Sequence record: NC_047884.1
Reading direction: 5' to 3' (one strand)
From: Escherichia phage saus132
DNA length: 64,000 nt
Position numbers and translations under genes: made by a program. Position 1 is the first letter of the stretch. Each line of letters starts with the position of its first letter. The notes below the pieces were generated by a model that saw nothing but the letters and a program-made list of their open reading frames with translations, did not search any database and was not told the DNA's origin. Of this stretch, positions 1,451 to 47,474 are shown one piece after another.

Positions 1451-1484
1451 CAGCCAGGTTGCTAGTCGACCTGGCTTTTATTTT
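1451..1484 (+). terminator. Rho-independent terminator after nrdD
   Basis: Hairpin CAGCCAGGT-loop-ACCTGGCTT followed by a T-rich run. Confidence 0.6.
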
Positions 1485-1532: not shown

Positions 1533-2219
1533 ATGGTACGAAGGAAGTTAGATAAAGACACTATCAATAAAGATTTAGAGCCTAGAAGAATTAAGCTAAT
1601 AAGTGAGTATTCTGGAATCCTTAATAAAGGCACATTCATATGTAGTGTAGGTCATACATGGGAAGCTACTGTTAATAATGTAAGGAATAGCAAATCTGGC
1701 TGTCCAATATGCGCAGGTACTTTTAAACTTACTAAAGATTCGGTAAATGAAGGGTTACGTAGTAGGGGTATTACTCTTATTGGAGAGTATAAAAATAATG
1801 CTACTAAAACTCTTTTTGAATGTGAGCATGGGCATAGGTGGGAAGCCACAGTAGGCAATGTAAAGAATAAAAATTCTGGGTGTCCTGTGTGCGATACTGA
1901 TTGGAATACCCCTGGTTTTATATACATTATGTGTAGTAGTATGGGAACTAAAATAGGAATTAGTATCTCTCCTGAAAGACGGTGGAAAGAGATAGTTAAA
2001 AGCTCCAATATACTAGATTTATATATTTTTGGTGTCTATTCAATAGATTCTGGTACCAAATCTAAAAGTAGGTCTATCGAGAAACAGACTCATGAATATT
2101 TTTCAGAATATAGATTAAAGTATACAGGATTTGCTGGATGTACTGAATTCTTTGATATATCTCCCATAGCCGTAGAAAAGCACTTAATTAATAATGGGTG
2201 TATAAAGGTAGAAAAATAA
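1533..2219 (+). CDS. Putative GIY-YIG-like (T5orf172-type) nuclease with two N-terminal zinc-ribbon repeats
   Basis: Duplicated HxWEATVxNV...SGCPxC repeat; C-terminal GFIYIM...KIGIS segment; very AT-rich island. Confidence 0.5.
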   Translation: MVRRKLDKDTINKDLEPRRIKLISEYSGILNKGTFICSVGHTWEATVNNVRNSKSGCPICAGTFKLTKDSVNEGLRSRGITLIGEYKNNATKTLFECEHGHRWEATVGNVKNKNSGCPVCDTDWNTPGFIYIMCSSMGTKIGISISPERRWKEIVKSSNILDLYIFGVYSIDSGTKSKSRSIEKQTHEYFSEYRLKYTGFAGCTEFFDISPIAVEKHLINNGCIKVEK

Positions 2220-2644: not shown

Positions 2645-2844
2645 AAAACGTAAAACATCTTAAGTATCGCTTAATTTACAACGGACGTATGGAAATAGAA
2701 GATCTAGCTCAGCTAGCGATCAATTCAGATGAAGTTACAGTTCGTGCTTTGTCCATCGAGAAGCTGCGTGCTTCTTACGAAAATCGTATTATGGAATTAG
2801 AGGAGAAACTTTATGGCATTCTCGAGTCAGAAGCTACCAGGTGA
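2641..2844 (+). CDS. Hypothetical small protein
   Basis: ORF start overlaps upstream stop (ATGA). Confidence 0.45.
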   Translation: MKNVKHLKYRLIYNGRMEIEDLAQLAINSDEVTVRALSIEKLRASYENRIMELEEKLYGILESEATR

Positions 2845-3058
2845 AAATGTTAGTCTTATTGATCTGAATAAGCTCAATCAAGAGTTTCAGGGAGTTTTAA
2901 TGAAGCACTGGGAAACTGGTTATAAGGATGGTGTTGAATCCTGTGCTACTATGCTAGAAGTTCTTGCTGATAACCTAGTGGAGAAAGGCAATAAAGAATT
3001 AGCTGAGCTGTTAGACAGTATTGGGCAAAACTTTAGAGAACAGGTGAAAAATGCGTAG
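2813..3058 (+). CDS. Hypothetical small protein (start uncertain)
   Basis: ORF in operon context; no motif recognised. Confidence 0.4.
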   Translation: MAFSSQKLPGENVSLIDLNKLNQEFQGVLMKHWETGYKDGVESCATMLEVLADNLVEKGNKELAELLDSIGQNFREQVKNA

Positions 3059-3902
3059 ACTAATCGTTGTTAGTGGTGCAGGTTTGAGTGTAGATAGTGG
3101 TGTTCGTGCTTTCCGTACTGATACTGCTAGTGGGAAATCCTTGTGGGATGAGTACGATCTAGAGGAAGTATGTAGCTTGCCTAACTTTGAAGCTGGCTTC
3201 CGTCGCTTCTGTGGTGAAGATGATCCTAACTACTTCAGTGCTCGTTTCCCTGGCATTGATGAAGATGGTAACGATCTGTATCTCAAGACTCATGAGTTCT
3301 ACAACATGCGTCGTCAGGAATTACAGACTGTTGAGCCTAACATTGCCCATCTGCGAATTGCAGAATGGTTCCAGCGTTATGGTGCGGATAGCGTGAAGAA
3401 CTTCACTACTAACGTTGATGACCTTCTGGAGCGCGCTGGTATCCCTCGTGATGAAATCATCCATGCTCACGGATACTTGAAAGAGGTGATCTATCGTCGG
3501 GGTCGCAATCAAATCATCGAAGATGTTGGATACACTGCAATTGTTCCTGAAGATTACGAATGGGTAAAACCAAACGTGGTGTTCTTTGGTGAAACAGCTC
3601 CGTGGTACATGGGTCAGATCAACCTGTTTGATACGCTTACTAGCAATGATATGGTTATTGTGGTGGGTTGTAGCAACCAAGTTATCAACTTCAACTGGGA
3701 ATTATTCCCTGCTGTATGTCGTGGAACTAAGATGATGGTTGTTAACCCTCAAGTTCGTTATGATGAACAGCTTGAGTATGAGAAACGTGGTGTTACTGTA
3801 TGGCGGGCTGGAGCTGCCGAAGTTTTTGGTAACAAGAATTTCATTGGTCAAGTAGAAGCCTTTATGGAAGGAACTATTTATGCACCGCAAGAGCATGTGT
3901 GA
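3051..3902 (+). CDS. Sir2-family (sirtuin-like) NAD-dependent enzyme lacking the zinc-ribbon cysteines
   Basis: Motifs VVSGAGLSVDSGVRAFR (GAGxS), TTNVD, catalytic HG, VVFFGE, VVGCS; no CxxC pairs between HG and FGE. Confidence 0.7.
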   Translation: MRRLIVVSGAGLSVDSGVRAFRTDTASGKSLWDEYDLEEVCSLPNFEAGFRRFCGEDDPNYFSARFPGIDEDGNDLYLKTHEFYNMRRQELQTVEPNIAHLRIAEWFQRYGADSVKNFTTNVDDLLERAGIPRDEIIHAHGYLKEVIYRRGRNQIIEDVGYTAIVPEDYEWVKPNVVFFGETAPWYMGQINLFDTLTSNDMVIVVGCSNQVINFNWELFPAVCRGTKMMVVNPQVRYDEQLEYEKRGVTVWRAGAAEVFGNKNFIGQVEAFMEGTIYAPQEHV

Positions 3903-4042
3903 TCTTTTAGTATGGCCGGACGGTAGTTGGTGCTACCGTTTCGAATTTGCTACCGATGACTTCTCATGGAAGAGTGATGATTTCTGCGTTATCTATGAGG
4001 ATACAGCAGAATGGAAAGAGTTCCTTATTAAGGAGGGAGAAT

Positions 4043-4228
4043 ATGGTGAAGAAGATTTTTAAGGGTATCTGGAAGGGTCTAGTATGGTTTGTCAACCTAA
4101 TTGGTATGATTACCATTTATTCTCTGTTCCTATCTGTTATGTGGGGTAAAGGTGAGCTGAAGGTTCCGGTTCCTTTTACTGATGAAGTTAAAGTCTGGAC
4201 GTGGGATGCTACTGGTGGAAATAAGTAA
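4043..4228 (+). CDS. Small membrane protein (61 aa)
   Basis: Strong RBS AAGGAGGGAGA before ATG 4043; single hydrophobic helix VWFVNLIGMITIYSLFLSVMW. Confidence 0.4.
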   Translation: MVKKIFKGIWKGLVWFVNLIGMITIYSLFLSVMWGKGELKVPVPFTDEVKVWTWDATGGNK

Positions 4229-4721
4229 TACTCCTGTGATTTTCCTGGATATTGATGGGGTACTCAATTCGAGCATCTCTCACCATCATGCTCTAGACAG
4301 TGAAAAGCTGTTCTTTGGCAGTGATTGGGTTTATAAGCCATTACTCCAGGTTTTTCAGAACTTTCTTAAACCCTCCCCAATAATGATTGTTGGGGTCTCT
4401 TCATGGTTTTCTGTACGAAATGAAATGGAGAACGTTCAGATTATGACCGGACTCGGTTTGATCGATCGTTTCCTTGGTACAACAGATTTTACTGGAGGTG
4501 GTTTATATCGGGGTAATTCTGTTTTACGTTTCGTCGAAAAACATAAGCTCAAGCATTGGTGTGTCTTAGACGATGCTGGTGCTATGATGTATCAATTTCC
4601 TACTGTTATTGTAAATGGCAGGACTGGAGTAAACCTTCAAGATTTAAATGCTATAAGCTATATGCTGGAATTTAGTCCAGATCTTGAAATGTGTAAGGCT
4701 CTTCAGAAACTTAAGGTATAA
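4206..4721 (+). CDS. HAD-superfamily phosphatase-like protein (start uncertain)
   Basis: N-terminal FLDIDGVLN (DxDGx motif I), later VLDD motif. Confidence 0.5.
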   Translation: MLLVEISNTPVIFLDIDGVLNSSISHHHALDSEKLFFGSDWVYKPLLQVFQNFLKPSPIMIVGVSSWFSVRNEMENVQIMTGLGLIDRFLGTTDFTGGGLYRGNSVLRFVEKHKLKHWCVLDDAGAMMYQFPTVIVNGRTGVNLQDLNAISYMLEFSPDLEMCKALQKLKV

Positions 4722-4723
4722 GC

Positions 4724-5152
4724 ATGTTCAATAATATTTTCATGAAAGAGGTAAATCCTATGCTCCTCAACTTCTGGCGTTCTCTCCCTAATGGTATGTA
4801 TAATGAAACCATCAATCTGCTTAAGATTTGGTGTGAGAATAATGATATCTTCTTATCCTTTAAAGGCCCACTAGAGGAAGCTCCATGTATTGGAGTTAGT
4901 GTGGATTTAGGTGAGGGAGTAGAAGAGATTGTAGACTGGAAAGAACTCGATGAAATGGGTCTGGTTTTTGCCTTAAATCATAAGCTGTTTATGCCTGCAA
5001 ATCACCGTCTTATTGTAAATTATCGCACTGGTGAAGCTCCTGCTTTCCAGGTAAATGAACGTGAGGGCTGGTCATATTCGCCCGAGGAAGTAAATGAGGG
5101 GATTCAGAAACTTCGTCGTTTCGGGTATATGATCCCAGGTTTAACTGCTTAA
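4724..5152 (+). CDS. Hypothetical protein, paralog A of a tandem pair
   Basis: Shares MGLVFALN...P...TGE...PGL pattern with the next ORF. Confidence 0.6.
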   Translation: MFNNIFMKEVNPMLLNFWRSLPNGMYNETINLLKIWCENNDIFLSFKGPLEEAPCIGVSVDLGEGVEEIVDWKELDEMGLVFALNHKLFMPANHRLIVNYRTGEAPAFQVNEREGWSYSPEEVNEGIQKLRRFGYMIPGLTA

Positions 5153-5161
5153 GGAGGCAGA

Positions 5162-5557
5162 ATGGAACAAGTATTTTGGCGTCAGATAGATCCTAGTTTG
5201 GTAGAGCGTGCTGAGGGGCTCCTTGCACGTTGGTTGGGGGTTGACAAGGTTAGTGTAACATTTCCGTTTACTTCTGTAACAGACCCTAGTGTAGGTGTCT
5301 TTGTGGACGAAGATGAAGATGATGGTTGGGAAGCTGACTGGAATGAATTGTCCAGTATGGGCTTGATTGTTGCCCTCAACTTCTCTATATTCCATCCACG
5401 TGGCTTAGCCATTACACGTGACCCCGAAACTGGTGAATCCCCTTATCTTTTGCAAGTAGAAGATGATATTTGGGAGTACACCGAAGATATTCTCGAAGAA
5501 GCTAAAGGTCAATTAAATCGCATTGGGATCTATGTTCCAGGCCTAAATGATGATTGA
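5162..5557 (+). CDS. Hypothetical protein, paralog B of a tandem pair
   Basis: MGLIVALNFSIFHP...TGESPY...VPGL aligns with the preceding ORF. Confidence 0.6.
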   Translation: MEQVFWRQIDPSLVERAEGLLARWLGVDKVSVTFPFTSVTDPSVGVFVDEDEDDGWEADWNELSSMGLIVALNFSIFHPRGLAITRDPETGESPYLLQVEDDIWEYTEDILEEAKGQLNRIGIYVPGLNDD

Positions 5558-5648
5558 TTTTCATTAGTCCAATCCTGATTACCGAGTCATTTTGGCTCGG
5601 TTTTCTCTGTGCTCAAAGACACTGATAGCACCTTCGGAAAAATTTTAC

Positions 5649-5678: not shown

Positions 5679-6173
5679 TTTATATTGAATTGAGAGACAT
5701 TAGTAAAAATTGATTTTGCTAATTTTTCTTGTTTACAATCCGCAATACGGAACAGTTAGGCTGCCCCATTAAGGGTTGTTTTAACTATTACTAGTGTTTA
5801 TACTGCATTAGTTAATTATCAATTAAGTGATCTGCGTACCCTGAATTCGGAAAGGTAAATCCAAACCGTGCATATTTAGCTCGTTATATAGGCAGAGCTT
5901 TATATGGGGGTGCGAACGAAAAGAGCAGCGAATGGTGACACGTCCAGTAGCCACCTACCAATAGGATAGTGAGGGCAATCAGAATCGGCTTAGCGGCCAA
6001 TGACCTAGGTTCTGATCTGGATAAGAGTTAAGAGAGCGCAGCACTGAGGTATGATAACTTATTCATACTGCTTGATGATGATTAATGTTTGTGTAAATGG
6101 TAGTAATAGTTGTTCTATTCTTTTGAATAGTCCTAAAGAAAGATATCCGAATAACCAACATAGGAGTATTGTT

Positions 6174-8963
6174 GTGTTCTCAATCCTACAAGGTCACGCA
6201 GGATTTTCCAGAGATAAAGCCACTGGCATCTGGAAAGAGATCAAAGTGGAAGACTACACCTTTGCAAAGCGATTCTCTAAAGAGCATCCAGAAGGTAAAC
6301 CAGCTTCCATGCCCTTCAAATTTGATGTACTTGAAGAACTTGACCCGCAAAACCTTGCTGAAATGTTACCTATCATGCGTCGTCTTACCAAAGACCCGCA
6401 TATTGTAGCTATTCGTGGTAAATGTTTAGCTCCAAAAGATAATGTGCGTCGTACCAGAGGAAACTTTAATGTATCCAATCCTAGTCATATTATTGCTATG
6501 GACGTGGATGGTATTGTAGATACTGGTGGCTATGACAAGTTTAATCTTGTCGGCATGGCACGTCATATTATTAAGATGTTGAATAGTATTAGTGAGGATA
6601 TGTTTCCTCTTGATGCAGGGTTTATTGCTCATGCATCGTCTTCGGCTGGCTTAAAACCAGGTATCCGAATGCACTTAATGCTAGAATCTAATGTCAAGGT
6701 AACGCAGGGGCAATTAAAATTCCTATTTACATCCATCAATGACAGTAGTAAGCAAAAGTATGGCTTTGATATTGCTGACTTAGCTTATTATTCTTCTGTT
6801 CAGCTTCACTATTTCGCAGATCCCTTATTTGATGATGGTATAGTCGATCCGTTTAAAGCGGAGAATAAACCACGTCTTGTGTATGTTAAGGGTTCGAAAG
6901 TGAATCTACCCAATAACCTAGTTGACTTTGAAACAACTAGAGGTGAGTTTAAAGAAGAATTCTACTCCTTACTTGACCAAATTAAAGGCAAGAAGGCTGC
7001 ATCTGATAAAGTGGAAGAAACCATCAGCGAACTAGAAGAAGCTGAGGATGGGGTGTACCTGCGTATTATCCCAAAACTTTATCACAGAGCGTTAGAAGAT
7101 GGTGTTGACTTTACGTGGTTAGAACGTGAGATTAAACCAGCTTTATCTGAGTATATTGCGACTAAAGATAATAGTCGTAATATTCAAGATTACTTTAATA
7201 ACGGTCGTAAGCAGGCTCTCAAAGCCTTTGTAAATAACTCCAAACGTGAGATTCCACCAAACTTAAAAGGTGTACCATTAAAACGTCTAGACACAGATTC
7301 TCCACCAGAAGTTCCATACCTGAAAATTAACATTGTACCACCAAAAGGACATTTAACATTTGTTAAGGCAAGTCTTGGTACGGGTAAAACTACAGCAGTA
7401 ACTAAGTGGCTAGATGCAGGTGTTCTTCCAGGGAACTTTATTGCAATCACAAATACTAGGGCACTTGTATCTTCTAACGCGAAGAAATTCGGTGCTGGCC
7501 AGTATGATAAGTCAGTTGATATGCTGAACTTCAAACGTGGTGCTATTGATCGTATGTCTTCAACTATTCACTCTATCCATAAGTTCAAGAGCTTTGTGGG
7601 TCAGATTGATACGATCTTTATTGATGAATGTGATGCAGTAATGAACGATCTGTTATTCGCTCCGGTTGTTAAAAACCGTCGTGAATGTATTCAGGTTCTT
7701 CGTGATATTCTTATTACTGCAAAAACGGTGATCTTATCTGATGGGGATATCAGTGCAGAAACGATTGAAGCCTATGGTTCTTTGATTGATTTTGATAAAC
7801 CGGTTGCGTTCTATAATCATCACCGTAAAATGCTGGCAAAAGCTCATGCTTATGAATTCCCTGACGAATCCAGTATTTGGGTTGCACTTCAAACATCTCT
7901 AGAGATGGGTGAGAAGTCAATCCTAGTATCTGACTGTGGACCAGATGAACTGAATGAAAAGGGAATGGCATTACGTCGTAATACGGGTGCGTTAGTTAAA
8001 GAAATTCACTCAAACTCTACGTCTGATGTAGATATCCGTCGTATTCTGGATTATACAACTAATGAGCTAATTGATCAACAGATTGATTGTTTGTTATGTA
8101 GTCCATCTGTAACGAGTGGTGTTGACTTTAACTATTTTGATAACGTATTCGTAATCACTAGAACCTCAAACCAAGCGCCAAACATGCGTTTTCAAGCAAT
8201 CAGGCGCGACCGTGGTGCTCAGAACATTTATTATTTTATTGATAAATCTACGAGTGGATTTTCTGCGGGTTCCGAGCAATATAATATTGACGAAGGTTGG
8301 ATTGAGTTAGCCCAACAACTGTACGCACGTCGCCGTGAGCTGGAATCTAGAAACTATACCAGTACTTTGCGTTATTATCTTCTCGATCAAGGTGCAACTA
8401 TCGATATTTTCAGCGAAAGCTGGGGAACTATCGAAGGTGCAGGCAAAGAGTATATAGAAGAGCGAATCAAAGCTATTTTGCACTCAACTCCTGAATATTG
8501 CGCACCACGTCATGCAGACGCCTATGAAGCCAAGTTACTTCTGGTTCGCTATTATCATCTGGATTCTATTAAAGATGTAATAGTGGAACACGTTGAACAG
8601 TATATTAAGGATAAACCAAACGATAGAGCTGCATTCTTCCATAAGATGCACGACATGTTCTGGGAAGATATTAAAAAGTGTTCAAACGTAACAATCAAAC
8701 CGTTTATCGAAGCTCTTAAGAATAAGAAGAAGGATTTCTTCCTTAAGACAGGTCAGAGCGCTAACCCAAAATATGCTCGTATGTATCTTGGCATGATGGG
8801 TATCGGTAAAGATCTGGATACGGAAAAGATTGTGGACTGGTACAGAACTTACTGTAAGATCGAATGTATGCCGATTCCAGTTAAGTTTATGACAGATGAA
8901 GAACGTCAGATGCATGAGGAAGCTCTTGCTGAATTGGGGGCTAGAAATGACAGCGAAGAATAA
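6174..8963 (+). CDS. Putative replication initiator / origin-binding-type helicase-like ATPase
   Basis: Walker A SLGTGKTT, Walker B FIDECD; start placed at GTG 6174 (RBS AGGAG 7 nt upstream) instead of track start 6051. Confidence 0.6.
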   Translation: MFSILQGHAGFSRDKATGIWKEIKVEDYTFAKRFSKEHPEGKPASMPFKFDVLEELDPQNLAEMLPIMRRLTKDPHIVAIRGKCLAPKDNVRRTRGNFNVSNPSHIIAMDVDGIVDTGGYDKFNLVGMARHIIKMLNSISEDMFPLDAGFIAHASSSAGLKPGIRMHLMLESNVKVTQGQLKFLFTSINDSSKQKYGFDIADLAYYSSVQLHYFADPLFDDGIVDPFKAENKPRLVYVKGSKVNLPNNLVDFETTRGEFKEEFYSLLDQIKGKKAASDKVEETISELEEAEDGVYLRIIPKLYHRALEDGVDFTWLEREIKPALSEYIATKDNSRNIQDYFNNGRKQALKAFVNNSKREIPPNLKGVPLKRLDTDSPPEVPYLKINIVPPKGHLTFVKASLGTGKTTAVTKWLDAGVLPGNFIAITNTRALVSSNAKKFGAGQYDKSVDMLNFKRGAIDRMSSTIHSIHKFKSFVGQIDTIFIDECDAVMNDLLFAPVVKNRRECIQVLRDILITAKTVILSDGDISAETIEAYGSLIDFDKPVAFYNHHRKMLAKAHAYEFPDESSIWVALQTSLEMGEKSILVSDCGPDELNEKGMALRRNTGALVKEIHSNSTSDVDIRRILDYTTNELIDQQIDCLLCSPSVTSGVDFNYFDNVFVITRTSNQAPNMRFQAIRRDRGAQNIYYFIDKSTSGFSAGSEQYNIDEGWIELAQQLYARRRELESRNYTSTLRYYLLDQGATIDIFSESWGTIEGAGKEYIEERIKAILHSTPEYCAPRHADAYEAKLLLVRYYHLDSIKDVIVEHVEQYIKDKPNDRAAFFHKMHDMFWEDIKKCSNVTIKPFIEALKNKKKDFFLKTGQSANPKYARMYLGMMGIGKDLDTEKIVDWYRTYCKIECMPIPVKFMTDEERQMHEEALAELGARNDSEE

Positions 8964-11495: not shown

Positions 11496-11768
11496 ATGAA
11501 AAAGATAAAAATAAGTCCACTTAAACCTTTACCGTACATAGGACAGTCTTTAGTTCTTTCCTGGGAAGAAAAGCTCAATGGAGAGAAGGTACGTATGGTT
11601 CGACAGGGGTATAAACTTATATCTCTCGCTTACGAAGCAAACACATTAGTTGCTGATATTTACTCTCCAATAACTCAAAGAGTGGGAAGTACTACCTATC
11701 TTTGCTTATGTAAGAACTTTACATGGCAGGGGGATACTATTCAGCCTAAAGCATATGAGGTACAGTAA
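11496..11768 (+). CDS. Hypothetical protein
   Basis: ATG 11496 behind RBS GAGAGGGG (track start 11481). Confidence 0.5.
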   Translation: MKKIKISPLKPLPYIGQSLVLSWEEKLNGEKVRMVRQGYKLISLAYEANTLVADIYSPITQRVGSTTYLCLCKNFTWQGDTIQPKAYEVQ

Positions 11769-11963
11769 ATGGCAATAACACTTCCAAAGATTCAAGCAAA
11801 ACTTAATTTGCTCTCCATAGCAAGAATCAATTACCAGGATAGTATCGGCACTCCAAACCAGAAAGCGTACAAAGATGCGTGGTTGAAAGAAGCTGCTGAT
11901 TTAGCTGGTATGGCTGCGCAGTATAGTAAAGAACTCAAAATGGAAATCGCAGATGATGAATAA
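11769..11963 (+). CDS. Hypothetical small protein
   Basis: ORF abutting upstream stop. Confidence 0.45.
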   Translation: MAITLPKIQAKLNLLSIARINYQDSIGTPNQKAYKDAWLKEAADLAGMAAQYSKELKMEIADDE

Positions 11964-12927
11964 TGTAAAAGACTTTATTAAACGTTGTCAAGAAGCGTAC
12001 TACCAGGGAATGAGTCTTATTTCCGATGAAGAATATGATCGTCTGATTAAAAGATTCCCACTAGAGGAAGAAATCGGACCGAAAGGTGATATCCCTCATT
12101 TGTATCGTATGTATTCTTTGCAGAAAGTCTATTACGATCGTGGTGATAAAGCTCCATTCAACCCACTTGGTCAGGTTGAAACTGATAAGTTAGATGGTTG
12201 TGCGATTTCTCTATTATATATTAATGGTGAATTTATTCAAGCGTTAACTCGTGGTAACGGTATTCTAGGGAATGATGTAACGCATAATGTTAAAATGCTG
12301 AACATCCCTAAAACTATCTCCCAAAAAGTTCCAACTCAAATCACTGGTGAAGTTCTCATCACTAAAGAAGTAGAGAACAAACGTAACTATGCTTCCGGTG
12401 CTATTAACTTGAAAGATAGTGATGATTTCATGCAACGTATTGGTGAAGGTGGTTTAATCTTCGTTGCATATGGTATCCAGTGTTCAGCGGAAACAGTCGG
12501 TATTACAGAAGCCTATTTAAAAGATATGCTTTGGCTAGAGAATGAGAACTTCTTGACAGTTGTTAATGTTCGTTCCTTCTTTAAGTGGATTCCGACGGAT
12601 GGTAAAGTTGTTCGTATTAATGATAACAACAAATTCTTCCGTGAAGGTTGGACTAATAAATTTCCTCGCGGTGCATTTGCTATTAAAGAGGATGAAGAAG
12701 GCGAAATTACCACACTTGTTAAAGTTGAATGGCAAGTAGGGGCTTCTGGTAAAGTAACTCCAGTTGGTTATTTCGAACCGGTGATTATTGATGATGCCAC
12801 AATCGTTAAAGCAACTCTTAATAACGTTGATTATATTAACGCTCTCGATTTAGAGATCGGTTGCCAGATTCGAGTGATTCGTGCTGGTGGTGTAATCCCT
12901 TGTATAGTAGAGCGAGTATACGACTAA
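11953..12927 (+). CDS. NAD-dependent DNA ligase, N-terminal (adenylation) part of a split gene
   Basis: Adenylation motif KLDGCAISLLY (KxDG) in LigA-like context. Confidence 0.85.
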   Translation: MMNNVKDFIKRCQEAYYQGMSLISDEEYDRLIKRFPLEEEIGPKGDIPHLYRMYSLQKVYYDRGDKAPFNPLGQVETDKLDGCAISLLYINGEFIQALTRGNGILGNDVTHNVKMLNIPKTISQKVPTQITGEVLITKEVENKRNYASGAINLKDSDDFMQRIGEGGLIFVAYGIQCSAETVGITEAYLKDMLWLENENFLTVVNVRSFFKWIPTDGKVVRINDNNKFFREGWTNKFPRGAFAIKEDEEGEITTLVKVEWQVGASGKVTPVGYFEPVIIDDATIVKATLNNVDYINALDLEIGCQIRVIRAGGVIPCIVERVYD

Positions 12928-13129: not shown

Positions 13130-13909
13130 ATGAAAATCGAAATTCCAACACAATGTCCCTCTTGTGGTTCTAAGCTAGATCTTGTCAACGGGCAATTATT
13201 CTGTAGGAATAAGTCCAACTGTCCAGCACAATCAAGTAAGTTAATCGAGAACTTCTGCACAAAAATGAAGTTAAAGGGCTTTGGCCCGAAAACTATTGAG
13301 AAGCTGGAACTGACTAAGATCTCAGAACTGTTTTACCTGACCGAAGAAGATTTGGTCGGAGCTGTGGGTAGCAAGGTTGCCGCTAAGTTGATTAGCGAGT
13401 TAAATACTAAGGTTCGCGGAGACATTGACTTTGGTTCGGTTCTCGGTTCTTTAGGAATTCCTCTTATTGGAGAGGTTGCAGCAAAGAAACTGTCCCAAAA
13501 TTGCACTAGCTTCCACGATGTGAAGGCTGACGGCAAGGCTGGAGAAAATTACAAAACCTGGCTAAATTCCCCACAAGGCAAGGATGTTATTGAATTACCA
13601 TGGAAATTCTCAACTGGTATTCGAGGTACTAAAGCTGATATCATCATTACGGATGATTTAGTTGCCCAGCCAAATGGAATCACGATCTGTATTACCGGAT
13701 CTTTGCAAGATTTTGCAAATCGAACGGATGCAACAAACTATTTAGAAAGTCTAGGATATACGGTTAAGAAATCCGTTACCAAAGACGTCAAATACCTAAT
13801 CTGTGAGGATGAATCAAAACGTTCTTCCTCATCTTATAAGAAAGCCGAAACGAATGGGATAGAAATCCTGTCGATTAAAGAACTATTGGAGAAAAATAAT
13901 AATGTCTAA
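13130..13909 (+). CDS. NAD-dependent DNA ligase, C-terminal part (zinc finger, HhH, BRCT-like)
   Basis: CPSCGSKL...CRNKSNCPAQ Cys4 zinc finger; GIPLIGEVAAKKL HhH-like; C-terminal BRCT-like region. Confidence 0.85.
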   Translation: MKIEIPTQCPSCGSKLDLVNGQLFCRNKSNCPAQSSKLIENFCTKMKLKGFGPKTIEKLELTKISELFYLTEEDLVGAVGSKVAAKLISELNTKVRGDIDFGSVLGSLGIPLIGEVAAKKLSQNCTSFHDVKADGKAGENYKTWLNSPQGKDVIELPWKFSTGIRGTKADIIITDDLVAQPNGITICITGSLQDFANRTDATNYLESLGYTVKKSVTKDVKYLICEDESKRSSSSYKKAETNGIEILSIKELLEKNNNV

Positions 13910-37310: not shown

Positions 37311-40300
37311 TTAAGAATTACCAAGTGATTTCAGGGTGGTTCCATTCTCATTAAGAGCCTGTTCCACGGCATCCCTGAAAGCAGCACTGTTACTCGAAGC
37401 AAAGTCTCGGAAGCTAGCCGCATCCATCGTACTGATGTTCAGCACAATAGGTCTACCCGATGTACTCTTTGAAGATCCTTTGAGTTCATCAGTAGGAGTA
37501 GCCTTCATCGGAACCATAGGAGTGATTACTTCGGTACCATGCTCACCCATCTGGTAACTAACTCCAGGGTACATATTACCACCTTCTGCACGAGGTACGA
37601 AAGAGTTCGCATTACCAATCCCTTGATCTCCTCTAATATAAGAAAGTTCTCCTGCGTTAGCCGACATAGAAACGTCCACGTTCTTCTGGCGCTCTCCAAG
37701 AGACAAGTATTGAGCTGTATCAGTACCCGAGTCTCCAATAGAAGACATACCAGATGCAGAGGATGCTTGTGCAAGAGACAATGCACCTGCAACACCTGCG
37801 GCAATCATAAGAGGAATAGACCAGGGGTAGGGAACAGCTGTTGCTGCTTGCATCACCGCTACTGCCGTCTGAATAATGATTTGCTTCTTAGCTGCATCCT
37901 GCTGGATCTTAACCTTTTCCGCTTCCAGTTTCTTGAGCTTAGCTTTAGATGCTTCGGATTTACCGTCACGTTTTTGCTCTGCTGCAATAGCCTGATCAAT
38001 AGCGGATACTTGATTACTTACTCCCATAGCGATCATTGAAGAAACCATCTGCATACCCGCTGCCACAGTGCTAACAGTATCTAAAGATCCCTGAGAGAAC
38101 TGCATCATGGCATTAGTAAGATTGCCTATACTCTGGCCAACTTCCGTTGCTTGGCTATTTAATGCTCCAAGCTTAGAAATAGCTTCGTCGTAAGAGGCCA
38201 TCTGGTTCTGCATATCAGCATACTTCTTATCATCCCCGGATAAACCAGTCGTAGGAGTATAAGTAGCTCCAACAGAAGAACCTACCTGTTGCTGCATCTG
38301 AGCATCTCTCTGTTTTTTAAGCTGTTCTAGGGCTGCTGAAGTTTTATAAATCTCATTACGATATTTAATTTCTTCTTCAGTATTGTCTTTGGATAACTCT
38401 AACTGCTTTTCTGAAATCGATAACCTTTCAGTAAGAATCTGAGACTGGCCAGTGACATTTCTCTCAGTTTGACTAACCTCTAAGGCATCCATGAGAGCTG
38501 ATACATGAGTAGCGGTAGCTTGTTTCTCTGCTTCCACGAGTTCTCTATTTATCTGTGCTTGAGCACGCCTAGATTGTTCAGCCTCTTTCTGTTTACCAGC
38601 TTGTCTAGAGTACCACGCATACTTTTCTTTCTCAATAGTCAGTTCTAGTTTTAACTGTGCTAAACGATACTGGGTATCTGTCATAGTACGGTTATTCAGG
38701 AGAGCAATTTCACGATCAACACCAAGAATCTTATCCGTATAGTCCTTAACTTTCTTCTGAGCTTCCATGTCCTGGTTAGTAATTTTGATACGTTCTAACT
38801 GAACCTTAGCTATTTCATTCTCAATTGCCTTGTTACCCTTGTTAGTTTCTAGGACACGCTTAAGGGCTGCTTCCTGTTCTTCTAACTGTTGGATTTCTAG
38901 ACGTCTACCCGCTTCCTGTGCTTTCTCTTTATCCTTGGTCTGGTTGTACACTTCGGCAATCTTTTGCTGAACTTCTAACTGATTTTTAGTCTCATTACTA
39001 GTTAATTTTACATAACCAGCAAGAGCTTGTGAGGCAGTCTTCATCTCACTAAGAGTATTATACCCTAAGTTCAGACTCTTAACATACTCATCAGCATTTT
39101 TACCAGTACCAGCAGATAGAGACTCAATAGTCTTAATCGTATCTGATAGGGATGCACTAGTTTTAGCCGCAGTATTAGTATTCTGAGCGATGTTCTGTAT
39201 ATCGTTAGCTAAATCACTAGCAGTTTTCTTAGCCTGATCATATGCTTTCTGCTGTTCCGTCAGTCCTTTCAGAGTTGCGGAGTTAAAGTCATAAACCGCA
39301 TCAGGGTCATTCATATCCTTCTGCAGATTAATCTGCTTCTGAAATTCTGGATTAGTCTTAGCAGCCGCAGCACCAGCAGCTTGATACGCAGATTTCCAAG
39401 CATTAAGGTTTTCAGTAGAGTCATCAACTTCTTTACCTAACCTTGCTACCTGTAGTCCCATAGCTGCGGTTTCTTCTACAAACTTTTTGTTAGCTTCGGA
39501 AGAACCTATGCGCACTCCCCCTACTTCAAATCCCCCAGCAGCTAATCCAACAGGCATCCCCTCACCCACTAATCTAATAGCGGCAGCAGTACTAGCATCT
39601 GCTTGGGACATACGTTTATCAAACTCAGTCTTTAGTTTATTACGCTTATCCAGAGACTCTTTATACATATCAAGAGCTTTATTATATCCTTCCTCGGAAG
39701 CGGAAAGACTTAAAGCTACAGCACCAACGTTAGTTGGGTCAATCTGACGGTTAGTTTCTTCTTGTGCTCTAGCAGCAGAAGCCGAGATAGATGCTTGAGA
39801 AGTATAGAATACTGCGTTAATAGAATCAATTACCGGCCCTAAATACTTAGCAGCAGCCTGTTGAACCTTTCTTAGTGCAGCATCAGCGTTAGCAGCAAAC
39901 TGTTCCCATGGAGTTGCACGGAGTACGTCATCCAAGTAGCCGAAACGTTTAGTAGATTCAGCAATTACTGCGTTAGCATATGCTTGTTGCTTTTGGAAAG
40001 TGGAAAGACTATTGACGTTATATGTGATACCTGTGTTAGCAGCATTTAACTGTTTAACGTAGTCAGCGTAAGCATCATTAAGACGAATAGTAACACCAAG
40101 TTCGTCCAGAAGTTCGATTTCTTGTTTAGATACACCTTTGATTACACGGTTAAGTGCATCAGTCATATCAACACCAAGAACAGCAGCAGCACGACGAGCT
40201 ACTAGACCAAATTTATTAAGTTGTTCAGCATCGAATCCATATGCAGAAGCAGAGGATGCCTGTCTCATTGCTTCTTCGAAGGAGATTGCATAACCAGCAG

Positions 40301-41018
40301 CCTCTTGTAGAGATCTAGCTAGAGTTTGTACCGGAGTACCTGTTTGAGTACCTACAATAGTACCGAACTTCTCCAGACGGTTTAACTGGTCACCCATCTT
40401 AAGTTGTTCGAATGCAGATTGTAGAACGAACACGTTAGATGCGATAGCAGCATACATAAGAGGTAGAGAACCACCAACTTTAGCCATTGCTGCGAAGTCA
40501 CGAGTAGCACCACGTGCAGAACCAGATGTATTACCTAGAGCACGACTAGCACGACCTGCGGATGTGGTAGTATCATTGAAGCCTCTAGTAGTACCCGACA
40601 AAACACGGTTTGTATCGTATAATCTATCTTGAACTTTTTCAGTTGCAGCAGCTACATCGTTACCCATCGCCTTAACAGATTTACCAACATGTGTAAATCC
40701 AGACTCTAGCTTATCGGATACCTCAATCATAGCAATAGCAAGGTCATCTAACTTAGCACCAATACTATCTATAGATTTGGTGATACCCATCATACCTCTG
40801 CTAGCCTGCATTTTAGTTAGGCTTTTAGCTGCTCTATCCGCTGCCCTCTCAATGGAGTAAAGAGTTTTGGGCATTTTTCCTAGCTGCTCATTAGTCAGTT
40901 CGGAAGCGGCAGCAGCATTTTCTAACGCATCGGAAACGTTCTCAATAGATTTTGCAGTACGGGTTGCCCCTTTCTGCTTTACATCTATAAGTAGTTCTCG
41001 TATTAGCTTATCAGTCAT
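37311..41018 (-). CDS. Tail tape measure protein (T5 pb2-like)
   Basis: 1235 aa, largely helical/coiled-coil; between chaperone ORFs and distal tail protein. Confidence 0.85.
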   Translation of the reverse strand: MTDKLIRELLIDVKQKGATRTAKSIENVSDALENAAAASELTNEQLGKMPKTLYSIERAADRAAKSLTKMQASRGMMGITKSIDSIGAKLDDLAIAMIEVSDKLESGFTHVGKSVKAMGNDVAAATEKVQDRLYDTNRVLSGTTRGFNDTTTSAGRASRALGNTSGSARGATRDFAAMAKVGGSLPLMYAAIASNVFVLQSAFEQLKMGDQLNRLEKFGTIVGTQTGTPVQTLARSLQEAAGYAISFEEAMRQASSASAYGFDAEQLNKFGLVARRAAAVLGVDMTDALNRVIKGVSKQEIELLDELGVTIRLNDAYADYVKQLNAANTGITYNVNSLSTFQKQQAYANAVIAESTKRFGYLDDVLRATPWEQFAANADAALRKVQQAAAKYLGPVIDSINAVFYTSQASISASAARAQEETNRQIDPTNVGAVALSLSASEEGYNKALDMYKESLDKRNKLKTEFDKRMSQADASTAAAIRLVGEGMPVGLAAGGFEVGGVRIGSSEANKKFVEETAAMGLQVARLGKEVDDSTENLNAWKSAYQAAGAAAAKTNPEFQKQINLQKDMNDPDAVYDFNSATLKGLTEQQKAYDQAKKTASDLANDIQNIAQNTNTAAKTSASLSDTIKTIESLSAGTGKNADEYVKSLNLGYNTLSEMKTASQALAGYVKLTSNETKNQLEVQQKIAEVYNQTKDKEKAQEAGRRLEIQQLEEQEAALKRVLETNKGNKAIENEIAKVQLERIKITNQDMEAQKKVKDYTDKILGVDREIALLNNRTMTDTQYRLAQLKLELTIEKEKYAWYSRQAGKQKEAEQSRRAQAQINRELVEAEKQATATHVSALMDALEVSQTERNVTGQSQILTERLSISEKQLELSKDNTEEEIKYRNEIYKTSAALEQLKKQRDAQMQQQVGSSVGATYTPTTGLSGDDKKYADMQNQMASYDEAISKLGALNSQATEVGQSIGNLTNAMMQFSQGSLDTVSTVAAGMQMVSSMIAMGVSNQVSAIDQAIAAEQKRDGKSEASKAKLKKLEAEKVKIQQDAAKKQIIIQTAVAVMQAATAVPYPWSIPLMIAAGVAGALSLAQASSASGMSSIGDSGTDTAQYLSLGERQKNVDVSMSANAGELSYIRGDQGIGNANSFVPRAEGGNMYPGVSYQMGEHGTEVITPMVPMKATPTDELKGSSKSTSGRPIVLNISTMDAASFRDFASSNSAAFRDAVEQALNENGTTLKSLGNS

Positions 41019-41039
41019 TTATTTTTCCCAATAAAAAAG

Positions 41040-41064
41040 GCTCTGGGCAAATCACCCAGAGCCA
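41040..41064 (-). terminator. Hairpin plus T-run immediately upstream of tape measure start
   Basis: Minus strand GGCTCTGGGTGATTTGCCCAGAGCC followed by TTTTTTATTGGGAAAAATAAATG. Confidence 0.55.
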
Positions 41065-41098
41065 AGCCTCATCGTGGAACGCCCATTGGAGGAAACTT

Positions 41099-41467
41099 TT
41101 ACTGAGCTCGAGATCTAGCATGCGGTTTAATGTTCGGAGTGCGACCATTTTGTTTACCATGCTTCTCGGCTCTCTTACGAGCTGCATCTACAGCTTTCGA
41201 ATCAAATATATTGATTATGTGTAGAACAAACTCTTTCTCTATGGGATCAGTAATCCCATAGATATCAAATAAAACACCTAGTGCACTTTTATCTTTTCCT
41301 ATAAAAATAGGAAAGTCACCTGGTATGAAACAGTCAATAAGACTGTTATAAATATTCATACTAGTAGATACAATAGGTGGAAAATCTTCGAGTTCAACAG
41401 GCATTGCCTTAGGATCAGGTTCAATACCTAGCGACTCACAAAGCATTAAATATTGTTGTTTTGTCAT
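41099..41467 (-). CDS. Putative tail assembly chaperone (second ORF)
   Basis: Small ORF directly upstream of tape measure gene. Confidence 0.45.
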   Translation of the reverse strand: MTKQQYLMLCESLGIEPDPKAMPVELEDFPPIVSTSMNIYNSLIDCFIPGDFPIFIGKDKSALGVLFDIYGITDPIEKEFVLHIINIFDSKAVDAARKRAEKHGKQNGRTPNIKPHARSRAQ

Positions 41468-46097: not shown

Positions 46098-47474
46098 TTA
46101 AGATGCAGCGTAAGTACCGGATACAACGCCATTTGCAAAGTAACGTTGCAGGTTAACACGCTGAGTAACGTAGTATGCGTCACGCTGTTTGCCAGCTTGG
46201 CGCTCACGTTCAACAGTAACAGCACGCTGACGCGGCATTACGAAGTTATCTTTATAAACAATAACTGCGAATTCTGCAGAAGCAGCCTTAGCTGGGAAGT
46301 ACTCAGAAACTACAACTGGCAGACCGTAAATACGACCAACCTGACCCTGCAGTTTAACAGCATCGTTACCAACCTGGGCAACATCCTGCCATTCTTCATC
46401 TTCCAGCAGATCGTAGTAAGCATCCATAGATACGATCAGTACCAGTTTGCTCAGTTTCAGACCGTGACGGCCCAGTTTACGACGCAGCTTGGAGATAGTT
46501 TTAGCAGTTACCAGAACAGAACCGTCAGCTTTAGCTTCGGTAACAACCTTAGCACCATCATCAGCAGCCAGTTTCAGCAGACCCTTAGGCTGACCAGTAC
46601 CATTACCGGACATGAAAGCTTCTTCGATAGAAACAGCGTGTGCTTCGATCAGACGCTTACGCAGCAGAGGCAGCAGGGAGAAGATTGCATCTTCTTCAGT
46701 TTCATCAGTGATGAAGGATTTAGCAGCCAGCTTGTAAGTTTTGAAGCTGATTTCAGTCAGTTGACCTTTAACTTCGTCACCAACAGTTTCGTCAGTACCG
46801 AATTTGGAAGCATCTACCCAAGTAGCACGACCAGCTTCTGGTTCAACGAGCATAGTAAGGATTTTGCTGGACATTGGCAGTTCATCGAACAGTGCACCAA
46901 CTACCAGTTCCTTCTGCAGGTCACGGATAATACGGGTAGAGAAGATAGTTTCGTATGCTTCGCTAGACATGGAAACGGAAGAAGAACCGTTAACAGCTTT
47001 AACGTGAGCCTTACCGTGTTCAGTTTCGAATACGTCCTTCTCCATCATATAAGACAGAAGAACCAGTTTCTCAACTTCATCTTCGAAAGCATCCTGAGTG
47101 CCATAAAGAGCTTTAGCTACGCTATCACCAACGAAGGAACGACCTTCACGAGCTGCTAACAGAGACTTAATTTCGTCCTGAAGACCAACGATGGTTTCCT
47201 GCTGCTTTTCTACAGTCTGTGCAAACAGTTCTGCGCTCTTCTTAGACTTCTCGTCCAGGTTCTTAACCAGATCCAGAGCTTCTTCCAGACGCTTACGGTC
47301 TTCACCAACAGCTTTAGATACTAGGTCATTCATACGAGACAGTTCTTTTTCTTCCTGCTCTTCACGCAGACGCTTAGCTTCCGCAGCTTTCTGAGCAGCA
47401 GTCAGACCTTCCAGAGATTTAGCCAGATCACCCAGACCAAGTTCTTCCTTCAGCTTATTAATATCAATAGTCAT
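46098..47474 (-). CDS. Major capsid protein with N-terminal scaffolding (delta) domain (T5 pb8-like)
   Basis: 458 aa; coiled-coil-rich N-terminal ~160 aa then HK97-fold-like body; precedes protease in transcription order. Confidence 0.85.
   Translation of the reverse strand: MTIDINKLKEELGLGDLAKSLEGLTAAQKAAEAKRLREEQEEKELSRMNDLVSKAVGEDRKRLEEALDLVKNLDEKSKKSAELFAQTVEKQQETIVGLQDEIKSLLAAREGRSFVGDSVAKALYGTQDAFEDEVEKLVLLSYMMEKDVFETEHGKAHVKAVNGSSSVSMSSEAYETIFSTRIIRDLQKELVVGALFDELPMSSKILTMLVEPEAGRATWVDASKFGTDETVGDEVKGQLTEISFKTYKLAAKSFITDETEEDAIFSLLPLLRKRLIEAHAVSIEEAFMSGNGTGQPKGLLKLAADDGAKVVTEAKADGSVLVTAKTISKLRRKLGRHGLKLSKLVLIVSMDAYYDLLEDEEWQDVAQVGNDAVKLQGQVGRIYGLPVVVSEYFPAKAASAEFAVIVYKDNFVMPRQRAVTVERERQAGKQRDAYYVTQRVNLQRYFANGVVSGTYAAS

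Follow-up and report, generated by a model that had tools for sequence, protein, structure and literature searches.

The DNA considered here (the window) is a stretch of 64,000 nucleotides from Escherichia phage saus132 (NC_047884.1), and the gene in question lies near its start, on the plus strand at positions 3051–3902. It encodes a Sir2-like protein of 283 amino acids (aa) followed by a stop codon, hereafter phage Sir2, which is the orthologue of the T5 gene T5.102. The original prediction had placed the gene at exactly these coordinates. The open reading frame (ORF) begins with ATG, 5 nt downstream of a Shine-Dalgarno sequence (AGGTGA), and its start codon overlaps the stop codon of the preceding ORF (ATGCGTAG). 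The supposition that the protein is phage-encoded is borne out by its 100% identity to ASU02468.1 of phage chee130_1 (Epseptimavirus). The surrounding 4 kb matches five food-derived T5-like phage genomes at 100%, among them MF431736.1, which is chee130_1 itself (Demerecviridae, Epseptimavirus; window position x equals record position x + 57,986).

Profile search and structure prediction, two of the checks first proposed for this gene, both return the Sir2 family. Phage Sir2 matches Pfam SIR2 (PF02146) with E=9.9e-22 and 78.2 bits (cutoff 24) and PHROG 2162 ('Sir2') with E=8e-108, and the closest solved structure by sequence is Escherichia coli CobB (1s5p; E=1e-16). The AlphaFold2 model, built on a 49-sequence alignment (predicted local distance difference test score, pLDDT, 86.9; predicted template modelling score, pTM, 0.86), has the Rossmann domain and small domain of a sirtuin. 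In a Foldseek search of the PDB it lies nearest to E. coli CobB (E=5e-16; TM score 0.82–0.83, normalised to the target), followed by Sir2Af1 and SIRT5. In sequence and modelled fold alike its nearest kin are thus deacylase sirtuins of the class III-like CobB/SIRT5 lineage, and not the NADases of defence systems. Judged from these searches, the match to the Sir2 family is not due to chance. The protein is acidic, with an isoelectric point (pI) of 4.8 against a family median of 4.95. Its functional elements are as follows.

3075–3089, plus strand: GAGLS (aa 9–13), the glycine motif that binds nicotinamide adenine dinucleotide (NAD), with G9, A10, G11 and S13 invariant
3171–3173, plus strand: C41, an invariant cysteine aligned to CobB A76, a site mutated in engineered acyl-selectivity variants
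3189–3278, plus strand: lineage-variable insertion in the helical small domain (aa 47–76), modelled with low confidence and ranging among relatives from 3 to 30 aa
3300–3314, plus strand: YNMRR (aa 84–88), with the class III sirtuin YxxR anion-binding pair Y84/R87, aligned to CobB Y92/R95
3405–3422, plus strand: TTNVDD (aa 119–124), with catalytic N121 and D123, and T120 replacing the usual Gln of TQNID
3462–3473, plus strand: HAHG (aa 138–141), holding the catalytic His140, aligned to CobB H147
3474–3581, plus strand: cysteine-less degenerate zinc ribbon (aa 142–177), with Y148 and G151 in place of the first CxxC and a deletion of the second between P166 and E167
3582–3593, plus strand: FFGE (aa 178–181), the substrate-loop motif, with F179 aligned to CobB F190

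The four core motifs from which the family had originally been recognised (GAGLS, TTNVDD, HAHG and FFGE) are thus all present as placed. The ratio of nonsynonymous to synonymous substitution rates (dN/dS) is 0.07–0.11 in comparisons with close relatives and 0.13–0.19 with more distant ones. Because the motifs are real and dN/dS stays within 0.07–0.19, the gene reads as functional and under purifying selection. Across 49 diverse homologues the residues G9, A10, G11, S13, F21, R22, Y84, R87, N121, D123, H140, F179 and E181 are invariant, and about 50 residues, including all the catalytic ones, are invariant across phage lineages. The protein is accordingly classed as a Sir2-family member with intact catalytic residues, and is apparently an active NAD-using enzyme.

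The acyl-lysine pocket is also retained. CobB residues were mapped onto phage Sir2 via a HMMER alignment, which pairs A76 with C41, Y92 with Y84, R95 with R87, I131 with V122, H147 with H140, V187 with V176, F190 with F179 and V219 with V211. Within the phage clade C41, Y84, R87, V122, H140, F179 and V211 are invariant and V176 is nearly so; four of the CobB positions concerned (A76, Y92, I131 and V187) are those named in the PDB titles of engineered variants. The YxxR motif is the class III signature and binds the carboxylate of succinyl- or malonyl-lysine (Y102/R105 in SIRT5). Phage Sir2 has both this pair (Y84 and R87) and, in C41, a small residue at the position of SIRT5 Ala86 and CobB A76. 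With its conserved acyl pocket and its YxxR pair, the active site looks, in alignment, like that of a CobB/SIRT5-type deacylase. Changes specific to the clade nonetheless cluster near it: Gln to Thr at position 120 (Q120T), GTS to GCS, and VYP to VIN. After the GCS motif V211, I212, F214 and W216 are invariant and N213 and N215 nearly so, where CobB has VYP.

The original prediction held that the zinc module between HG and FGE is absent. The cysteines are indeed missing, but the module itself is still there. Phage Sir2 has four cysteines (positions 41, 54, 207 and 223), none of which lies between H140 and F178, and when it is aligned with 120 homologues that are 54% or more identical to it, no cysteine column between HG and FGE is conserved; in the same 121 sequences C41 is conserved throughout (121/121) and C207 in 109. 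The four-cysteine structural zinc site of the Sir2 superfamily is therefore lacking. For the comparison of ribbons, a profile search of 1.84 billion cluster representatives yielded 1,721 relatives at E<=1e-3, only 18 of them at E<=1e-30, and the best 150 of the 1,721 were aligned. Among the closest relatives (about E < 1e-29), almost every one has two cysteines or fewer and no CxxC pair between HG and FGE, and many relatives at E 1e-28 to 1e-16 carry CxxC...CxxC in this segment. The segment measures 37 aa in phage Sir2 against about 40–43 aa in the zinc-type relatives, with which it shares an internal 'IGY' motif and the ending 'KPNVVFFGE'. The first CxxC of these relatives aligns with Y148...G151 and the second falls in the short gap P166/E167. 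The AlphaFold2 model gives the ribbon three strands (141–150, 153–158 and 172–176) with block-mean pLDDT values of 91–94. On this model the zinc module is degenerate and slightly shortened, not absent, and forms a beta-ribbon without metal ligands.

Loss of the zinc ligands goes together with other exchanges. The Gln of TQN[IV]D is present in 80 of 96 zinc-type relatives and Thr occupies its place in 35 of 52 zinc-less ones, while the Thr of the GTS motif is mostly exchanged (for Ser, Cys or Ala) alongside zinc loss. H140, N121 and D123 are invariant or nearly so in both groups. Since TQN contacts the N-ribose, Q120T suggests that the ribose step is handled differently. Given that the ribbon persists and is modelled with confidence, the loss of zinc is in itself probably neutral for the structure, with folding made independent of metal and the chemistry left unchanged. 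Taken alone, the zinc-less ribbon is a minor structural curiosity that is already in print: Skliros et al. (2016) reported that the zinc ligand is absent from the finger of the Sir2/CobB proteins of phages phiSt2, phiGrn1 and KVP40 and proposed salt bridges as a substitute (PMC5107563). These Vibrio schizoT4-like phages encode a sirtuin of the same family (about 32% identity to VH7D), but differ from the T5-like phages in lineage and in gene neighbours, and no HAD_SAK_2 gene was found beside the gene in the VH7D locus. The same paper noted T5 as a homologue carrier, and its argument for Acs deacetylation was made in silico only (PMC5107563).

The family is widespread among phages. A tblastn search found this sirtuin in 982 of 50,697 phage records (about 2%), the carriers being T5-like phages, Vequintavirinae, Stephanstirmvirinae, Vibrio Schizotequatroviruses and jumbo phages. 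T5 itself, a model phage, is among them, as are KVP40-like and jumbo phages and the rV5-like and phi92-like phages that feature in therapy cocktails. Stringent patterns for the close clade returned no relative in 185,579 bacterial and archaeal species, represented by one genome each. With the more distant zinc-less subfamily as query, 545 cellular sirtuins were found, and 79 of the best 80 are ordinary TQN/CxxC proteins; the remaining one is a zinc-less TTN protein encoded chromosomally, among non-phage-looking neighbours, in a Marinobacterium metagenome-assembled genome (MAG; OY782520.1). The zinc-less, Thr-type clade is thus essentially viral in these data. In the Marinobacterium MAG (L067) the zinc-less sirtuin gene lies 5 kb from a second, canonical one (5920–6732 and 11498–12343). 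Fusion partners were sought in longer relatives (P0158, P0176 and others), and only tandem Sir2 or WG repeats were found. Orthologues of 57–74% identity in Klebsiella phage vB_Kpn_3 and Pectobacterium phage DU_PP_V (P0010 and P0079) are misnamed 'tail assembly protein' in GenBank and UniRef.

Phage Sir2 shares the GAGxS, FR, YxxR, N, D, catalytic His and FGE-loop elements with E. coli CobB (PDB 1S5P, 6RXJ–6RXS), from which it differs in lacking the cysteine ligands of the ribbon, in having TTN for TQN, GCS for GTS and VIN for VYP, in a 30-aa insertion in the helical module, in its acidity and in its restriction to phages. Orthology with CobB was rejected, since the best scores against the NCBIfam models (NF040867, NF001753 and others) were 91.5 bits against a cutoff of 243 and 74.6 against 320. 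The suggestion that the protein is not a housekeeping deacetylase is to this extent upheld. The desuccinylase-type enzymes SIRT5 and Sir2Af1 bind zinc via four cysteines and, unlike phage Sir2, have no link to RNA-repair genes.

This link emerges from the genes around sir2, which in the window are arranged as follows.

1452–1476, plus strand: terminator-like hairpin after nrdD, delimiting the unit upstream; T5 is annotated with a terminator and a promoter at this place
1533–2219, plus strand: homing-endonuclease-like ORF of 228 aa between nrdD and the Sir2 operon, matching a PHROG 'endonuclease'
2285–2644, 2641–2844 and 2813–3058, plus strand: three small ORFs without assigned function, upstream of sir2 in the same transcription unit
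3051–3902, plus strand: sir2
3880–4062, plus strand: small conserved ORF of 60 aa (PHROG 5116), overlapping the 3' end of sir2
4046–4228, plus strand: small conserved ORF of 60 aa (PHROG 11166)
4206–4721, plus strand: HAD_SAK_2 phosphatase of 171 aa with a capless HAD fold, orthologue of T5.105
4724–5152, plus strand: DUF7415 protein, paralogue a, orthologue of T5.106
5162–5557, plus strand: DUF7415 protein, paralogue b, orthologue of T5.107
5581–5601, plus strand: terminator-like hairpin closing the Sir2–HAD–DUF7415 unit; the T5 annotation has a terminator there

The hairpins at 1452–1476 and 5581–5601 bound what reads in the sequence as a co-directional early operon. A promoter scan returned 10 sites against 14.6 expected in shuffled sequence, and hence no excess. 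Within this terminator-bounded unit the HAD_SAK_2 gene follows sir2 at a distance of 300 bp, and its product matches the Pfam family HAD_SAK_2 ('HAD domain in Swiss Army Knife RNA repair proteins') with E=2.7e-17. The sequence FLDIDGVLN is invariant in it, and DIDG, from its DxD signature, would be HAD motif I. The model (pLDDT 94) is a capless HAD fold nearest to MDP-1, Scp1/Fcp1 and UBLCP1. Capless members of the HAD family mostly act on macromolecular phosphoesters. Homologues of HAD_SAK_2 are all standalone proteins, none of them fused, and a sequence search of the PDB with the HAD and DUF7415 proteins gave only noise.

Several further observations concern this segment. The ORF at 1533–2219 encodes two DUF4379 treble-clef zinc fingers and a T5orf172/MUG113 (GIY-YIG-like) domain, and looks like a mobile homing-endonuclease insertion because T5 has no gene there. 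The DUF7415 pair follows the HAD gene in every T5-like locus that has one, and is still present in phage DT57C. Notes to the T5 genome tie T5.105 and T5.107 to neighbouring genes of Aeromonas phage Aeh1. The HAD_SAK_2 gene is labelled 'Sir2 (NAD-dependent deacetylase)' in RefSeq T5 and many T5-like records, a propagating annotation error; the records show 'Sir2 (x2)' because PHROG 18062, a 92-position model of the HAD C-terminus, bears the Sir2 name. Further downstream, the gene of 970 aa at 6051–8963, a helicase/origin-binding protein orthologous to T5 D1/T5.108, is annotated 'DNA primase C'. The ORF list starts it at 6051 and the record at window position 6174, so the first ~41 codons are probably not translated. 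The DNA ligase is annotated as two coding sequences (window 11956–12927 and 13130–13909), and its T5 equivalent is the NAD-dependent ligA.

Pfam and tblastn searches with seed proteins served to compare the gene neighbourhood in 59 loci from IMG/VR and several from GenBank. Sir2, HAD_SAK_2 and the two DUF7415 genes are kept together in 34 of 37 T5-like loci. Fifteen Vequintavirinae-like loci have genes of an RNA-repair cassette within a few kb of sir2: 13 carry a calcineurin-type phosphoesterase, an Rnl1-type RNA ligase, an AAA_33 kinase and a MazG-like pyrophosphohydrolase, and 10 also a protein with a cREC cyclic-phosphate domain. The order and orientation of the cassette in rV5-type loci are unlike those in the other Vequintavirinae-like loci. 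The association extends to more distant sirtuins: in L062 a Sir2 gene of 38% identity has HAD_SAK_2 at a distance of 3 kb, and in L064, a phage contig of 608 kb, an Rnl1 ligase lies 1.2 kb upstream of a Sir2 with 34% identity. In jumbo phage PBECO4 sir2 is immediately followed by a Nudix gene, and L151 has the inverted order, with nrdD first, HAD_SAK_2 next, and SIR2 after two small genes. As a rough guide, ±3 kb around the gene covers about 1–7% of these genomes, so that repeated adjacency to rare RNA-repair genes in at least four lineages is unlikely to be due to chance, with the reservation that the families were chosen after the fact. Both the phi92-like phages and Vibrio phage VH7D encode, no more than 3 kb upstream of sir2, a protein with DUF7277 and DUF7275 (L016 3981–4907 and L004 3098–3856), which is a possible further conserved partner.

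These neighbourhoods, with RNA healing and sealing enzymes and no macrodomain, are those of the sirtuin clade that Iyer, Burroughs, Anantharaman and Aravind (2022) described. In their study most viral sirtuins form a distinct clade, with a predicted role in RNA repair 'analogous to KptA', and one of three neighbourhood types, found in the T5-like phage SP15, combines a sirtuin with a Swiss-army-knife HAD (PMC9503650). The window holds this third type, and phage Sir2 is a member of the clade without any difference from it. Their second type is reproduced here by the loci with Rnl1, cREC, kinase, MazG-like and calcineurin-like phosphoesterase genes, while of their jumbo-phage type only the Sir2–Nudix pair was recovered. 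The public record already contains the gene and its family, the zinc-less state and the leading hypothesis on function.

The tentatively favoured reading is that phage Sir2 is an NAD+-dependent, Tpt1-like member of a phage module that repairs damaged RNA. Tpt1/KptA uses NAD+ in a reaction in which an oxygen attacks C1'', nicotinamide is lost and the 2''-OH transesterifies to give a 1'',2''-cyclic product (PMC11417386). The sirtuin mechanism is formally parallel, with attack on C1'', loss of nicotinamide, attack by the 2''-OH and a 1'',2''-cyclic species. Phage Sir2 would carry out a sirtuin version of this chemistry, in which an oxygen of an RNA phosphate (either a terminal phosphate or the 2'-phosphate that remains once a 2',3'-cyclic end has been opened) would attack C1'' of NAD+ and expel nicotinamide, whereupon the ribose 2''-OH, activated by His140, would attack phosphorus while the invariant Y84/R87 pair holds the anionic group. 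The HAD phosphatase would then heal the remaining RNA end or degrade the ADP-ribose product, a role that cREC, metallophosphoesterase or Nudix enzymes may take in other phages, and the benefit would be the rescue of tRNA or mRNA cut by host anticodon nucleases. Any relation to Tpt1 would be one of functional analogy only: membership of the KptA/Tpt1 family was rejected, SIR2 being the sole Pfam match at E<=1 and the predicted fold that of Sir2, and KptA itself is classed with the ADP-ribosyltransferases rather than the Sir2 family (PMC9503650). The sharper proposal, that phage Sir2 is no protein deacylase at all but a functional stand-in for Tpt1/KptA with a sirtuin fold, which would spend NAD+ on the removal or ADP-ribosylation of RNA phosphates and work together with the capless HAD, is rather doubtful. 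Repair of RNA cut by host nucleases would be a form of counter-defence, and since the neighbourhood points to RNA-end repair, the 'anti-defence' role first suggested for the gene may be right in a sense other than the one proposed.

A number of observations weigh against a role in RNA repair. The entire CobB acyl-lysine pocket is conserved, so that ordinary lysine deacylation is the simpler explanation. Tpt1 enzymes are basic, unlike the acidic phage Sir2 (pI 4.8). No RNA-repair neighbour is recognisable in the phi92-like and KVP40-like (VH7D) loci, and neither an RNA ligase nor a polynucleotide kinase is listed in the annotated genomes of T5 and chee130_1. With no phage RNA ligase annotated, a T5-like module would need host ligases. 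In Vequintavirinae the kinase, metallophosphoesterase and Rnl1 suffice for T4-type repair without a 2'-phosphotransferase. HAD_SAK_2 also occurs beside NAD-salvage-like genes: in Serratia phage vB_SmaM-ChuuTotoro (L149, ON287369.1, 6001–9217) it is followed by a phosphoribosyl pyrophosphate (PRPP) synthetase-like (Prs-like) gene and then by a 595-aa NAPRTase-family gene, which look like the NARP1 pair (Adps plus Namat), and because of this placement HAD_SAK_2 may serve ADP-ribose or NAD metabolism too. Adjacency in dense early phage regions is, moreover, weaker evidence than in bacterial operons, and the literature yielded no biochemical or genetic study of T5-like or other phage sirtuins.

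The conserved pocket leads directly to the main competing explanation, a classical NAD+-dependent lysine deacylase of the CobB/SIRT5 type acting on host or phage proteins during infection, which is quite possible. Such an enzyme would probably prefer acidic acyl groups (succinyl and malonyl) as well as acetyl, might for instance reactivate acylated metabolic, translation or repair enzymes, and would leave zinc loss neutral. It would account for the conserved counterparts (C41, Y84, V122 and V176) of the CobB sites A76, Y92, I131 and V187 at which selectivity has been engineered, for the invariance of the YxxR pair throughout the phage clade and for a fold closest to CobB and SIRT5, and it is the published reading of the homologous zinc-less vibriophage Sir2/CobB, for which Acs deacetylation was proposed (PMC5107563). 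However, it leaves unexplained the lasting linkage to phosphoesterases and RNA ligase across lineages and rearrangements, and it is not obvious what phosphoesterases would do as partners in an acyl-lysine pathway. Nor does it fit easily with the clade-specific Q120T, GTS to GCS and VYP to VIN changes and the accompanying conservation of F214 and W216 (invariant) and of N213 and N215 (at least nearly so), with scores below every NCBIfam CobB cutoff, or with hosts that already encode CobB. RNA repair is ranked above deacylation because the linkage to phosphoesterases and RNA ligase survives rearrangements and reaches down to 34% identity. It is favoured, too, because this linkage is the one feature that separates the clade from ordinary CobB, and Q120T agrees with it.

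The original prediction had suggested that phage enzymes of this kind may manipulate host NAD pools or modify host proteins. As an NAD+ glycohydrolase (NADase) or protein ADP-ribosyltransferase, phage Sir2 would serve takeover or anti-defence by depleting or redirecting host NAD+ or by modifying host proteins. The literature describes certain zinc-less Sir2 domains (ThsA, DSR and Sir2-HerA) as NADases, and phage Sir2 has the catalytic Asn and His needed for NAD cleavage. Its genome also encodes a PnuC plus NadR pair of the NARP3 type, which indicates that the NAD+ economy matters to the phage (PMC13464706), and a NAMPT gene adjoins a distant homologue in L063 and points to NAD metabolism. Such an activity is nevertheless unlikely. 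There is no PADLOC match and no macrodomain partner, the deacylase-type acyl pocket and FGE loop are kept, and destruction of NAD+ would be counterproductive for a phage with an NAD-dependent DNA ligase and an NAD+ restoration pathway. With the ribbon degenerate rather than removed, nothing supports zinc loss as the mark of an NADase, and manipulation of the NAD pool is poorly supported. The defence Sir2 NADases (ThsA, DSR1/2, Sir2-HerA and Avs5) and SirTM have the Sir2 Rossmann core and NAD+ use in common with phage Sir2, but membership of the defence types (Thoeris ThsA, DSR, Sir2-HerA and SIR2-APAZ) was rejected for want of a PADLOC match, and membership of class M (SirTM) because no macrodomain is fused to the protein or encoded in its operon. 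An equally improbable variant sees in phage Sir2 part of a small-molecule or RNA-cap pathway of NAD or ADP-ribose, in which it would strip nicotinamide from NAD-derived species such as NAD-capped RNA or a modified dinucleotide, leaving HAD, Nudix, MazG or cREC proteins to degrade the ADP-ribose-containing product. Neighbours of the right kind exist (a Nudix hydrolase, a MazG-like pyrophosphohydrolase, NAMPT, a nucleoside 2-deoxyribosyltransferase-like protein and a kinase of AAA_28, the Pfam family of the NadR ribosylnicotinamide kinase domain), and HAD_SAK_2 directly precedes the Prs-like and NAPRTase-family genes in ChuuTotoro. Against this, the capless HAD fold suggests a macromolecular rather than a small-molecule substrate, the support is purely contextual and overlaps that for RNA repair, and we know of no sirtuin activity of this kind. 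That the gene is an inert or decaying remnant is highly improbable: viable phage DT57C has lost most of sir2 and the HAD gene, but dN/dS of 0.07–0.19 attests to strong purifying selection, about 50 residues including all the catalytic ones are invariant across lineages, and the gene occurs in 982 phage records.

The NAD+ restoration genes lie outside the window. Upstream of it, MF431736.1 encodes a PnuC-like transporter and a NadR-like enzyme (record positions 39617–41351), a NARP3 pair. NAD+ restoration by NARP3 (PnuC plus NadR) was shown in 2026 to defeat the Sir2-HerA and DSR1 defences (PMC13464706). Assignment of Sir2 and HAD themselves to NARP3 was rejected, since NARP3 consists of PnuC plus NadR, encoded elsewhere in MF431736.1. 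This phage thus both restores NAD+ and encodes consumers of it (Sir2 and the NAD-dependent DNA ligase).

Phage DT57C (L066, NC_027356.1) bears on when sir2 is needed. At record positions 46493–46765 it has a 273-bp remnant annotated 'sir2 (defective)', followed directly by the T5.106 orthologue; a natural deletion has removed most of sir2 together with T5.103, T5.104 and the HAD gene T5.105. Because DT57C is viable, sir2 and HAD are jointly dispensable on a laboratory host, which is what a conditional function, counter-defence for example, would lead one to expect. DT57C is at the same time a natural, ready-made Sir2/HAD knockout, and shows that knockouts are viable.

If the sharper proposal of a Tpt1/KptA replacement is true, phage Sir2 would represent a new kind of counter-defence enzyme in phages, and no sirtuin would have been shown before it to act on RNA phosphates. 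As an enzyme of RNA ends or RNA 2'-phosphates it would extend sirtuin chemistry from acyl-lysine to nucleic acids and add a new component to counter-defence by tRNA repair. If it is an ordinary deacylase, large virulent phages would reset the protein acylation of their hosts. In either case the substrate, damaged RNA or acylated protein, of a sirtuin carried by about 2% of sequenced phages can be settled by a simple in vitro assay.

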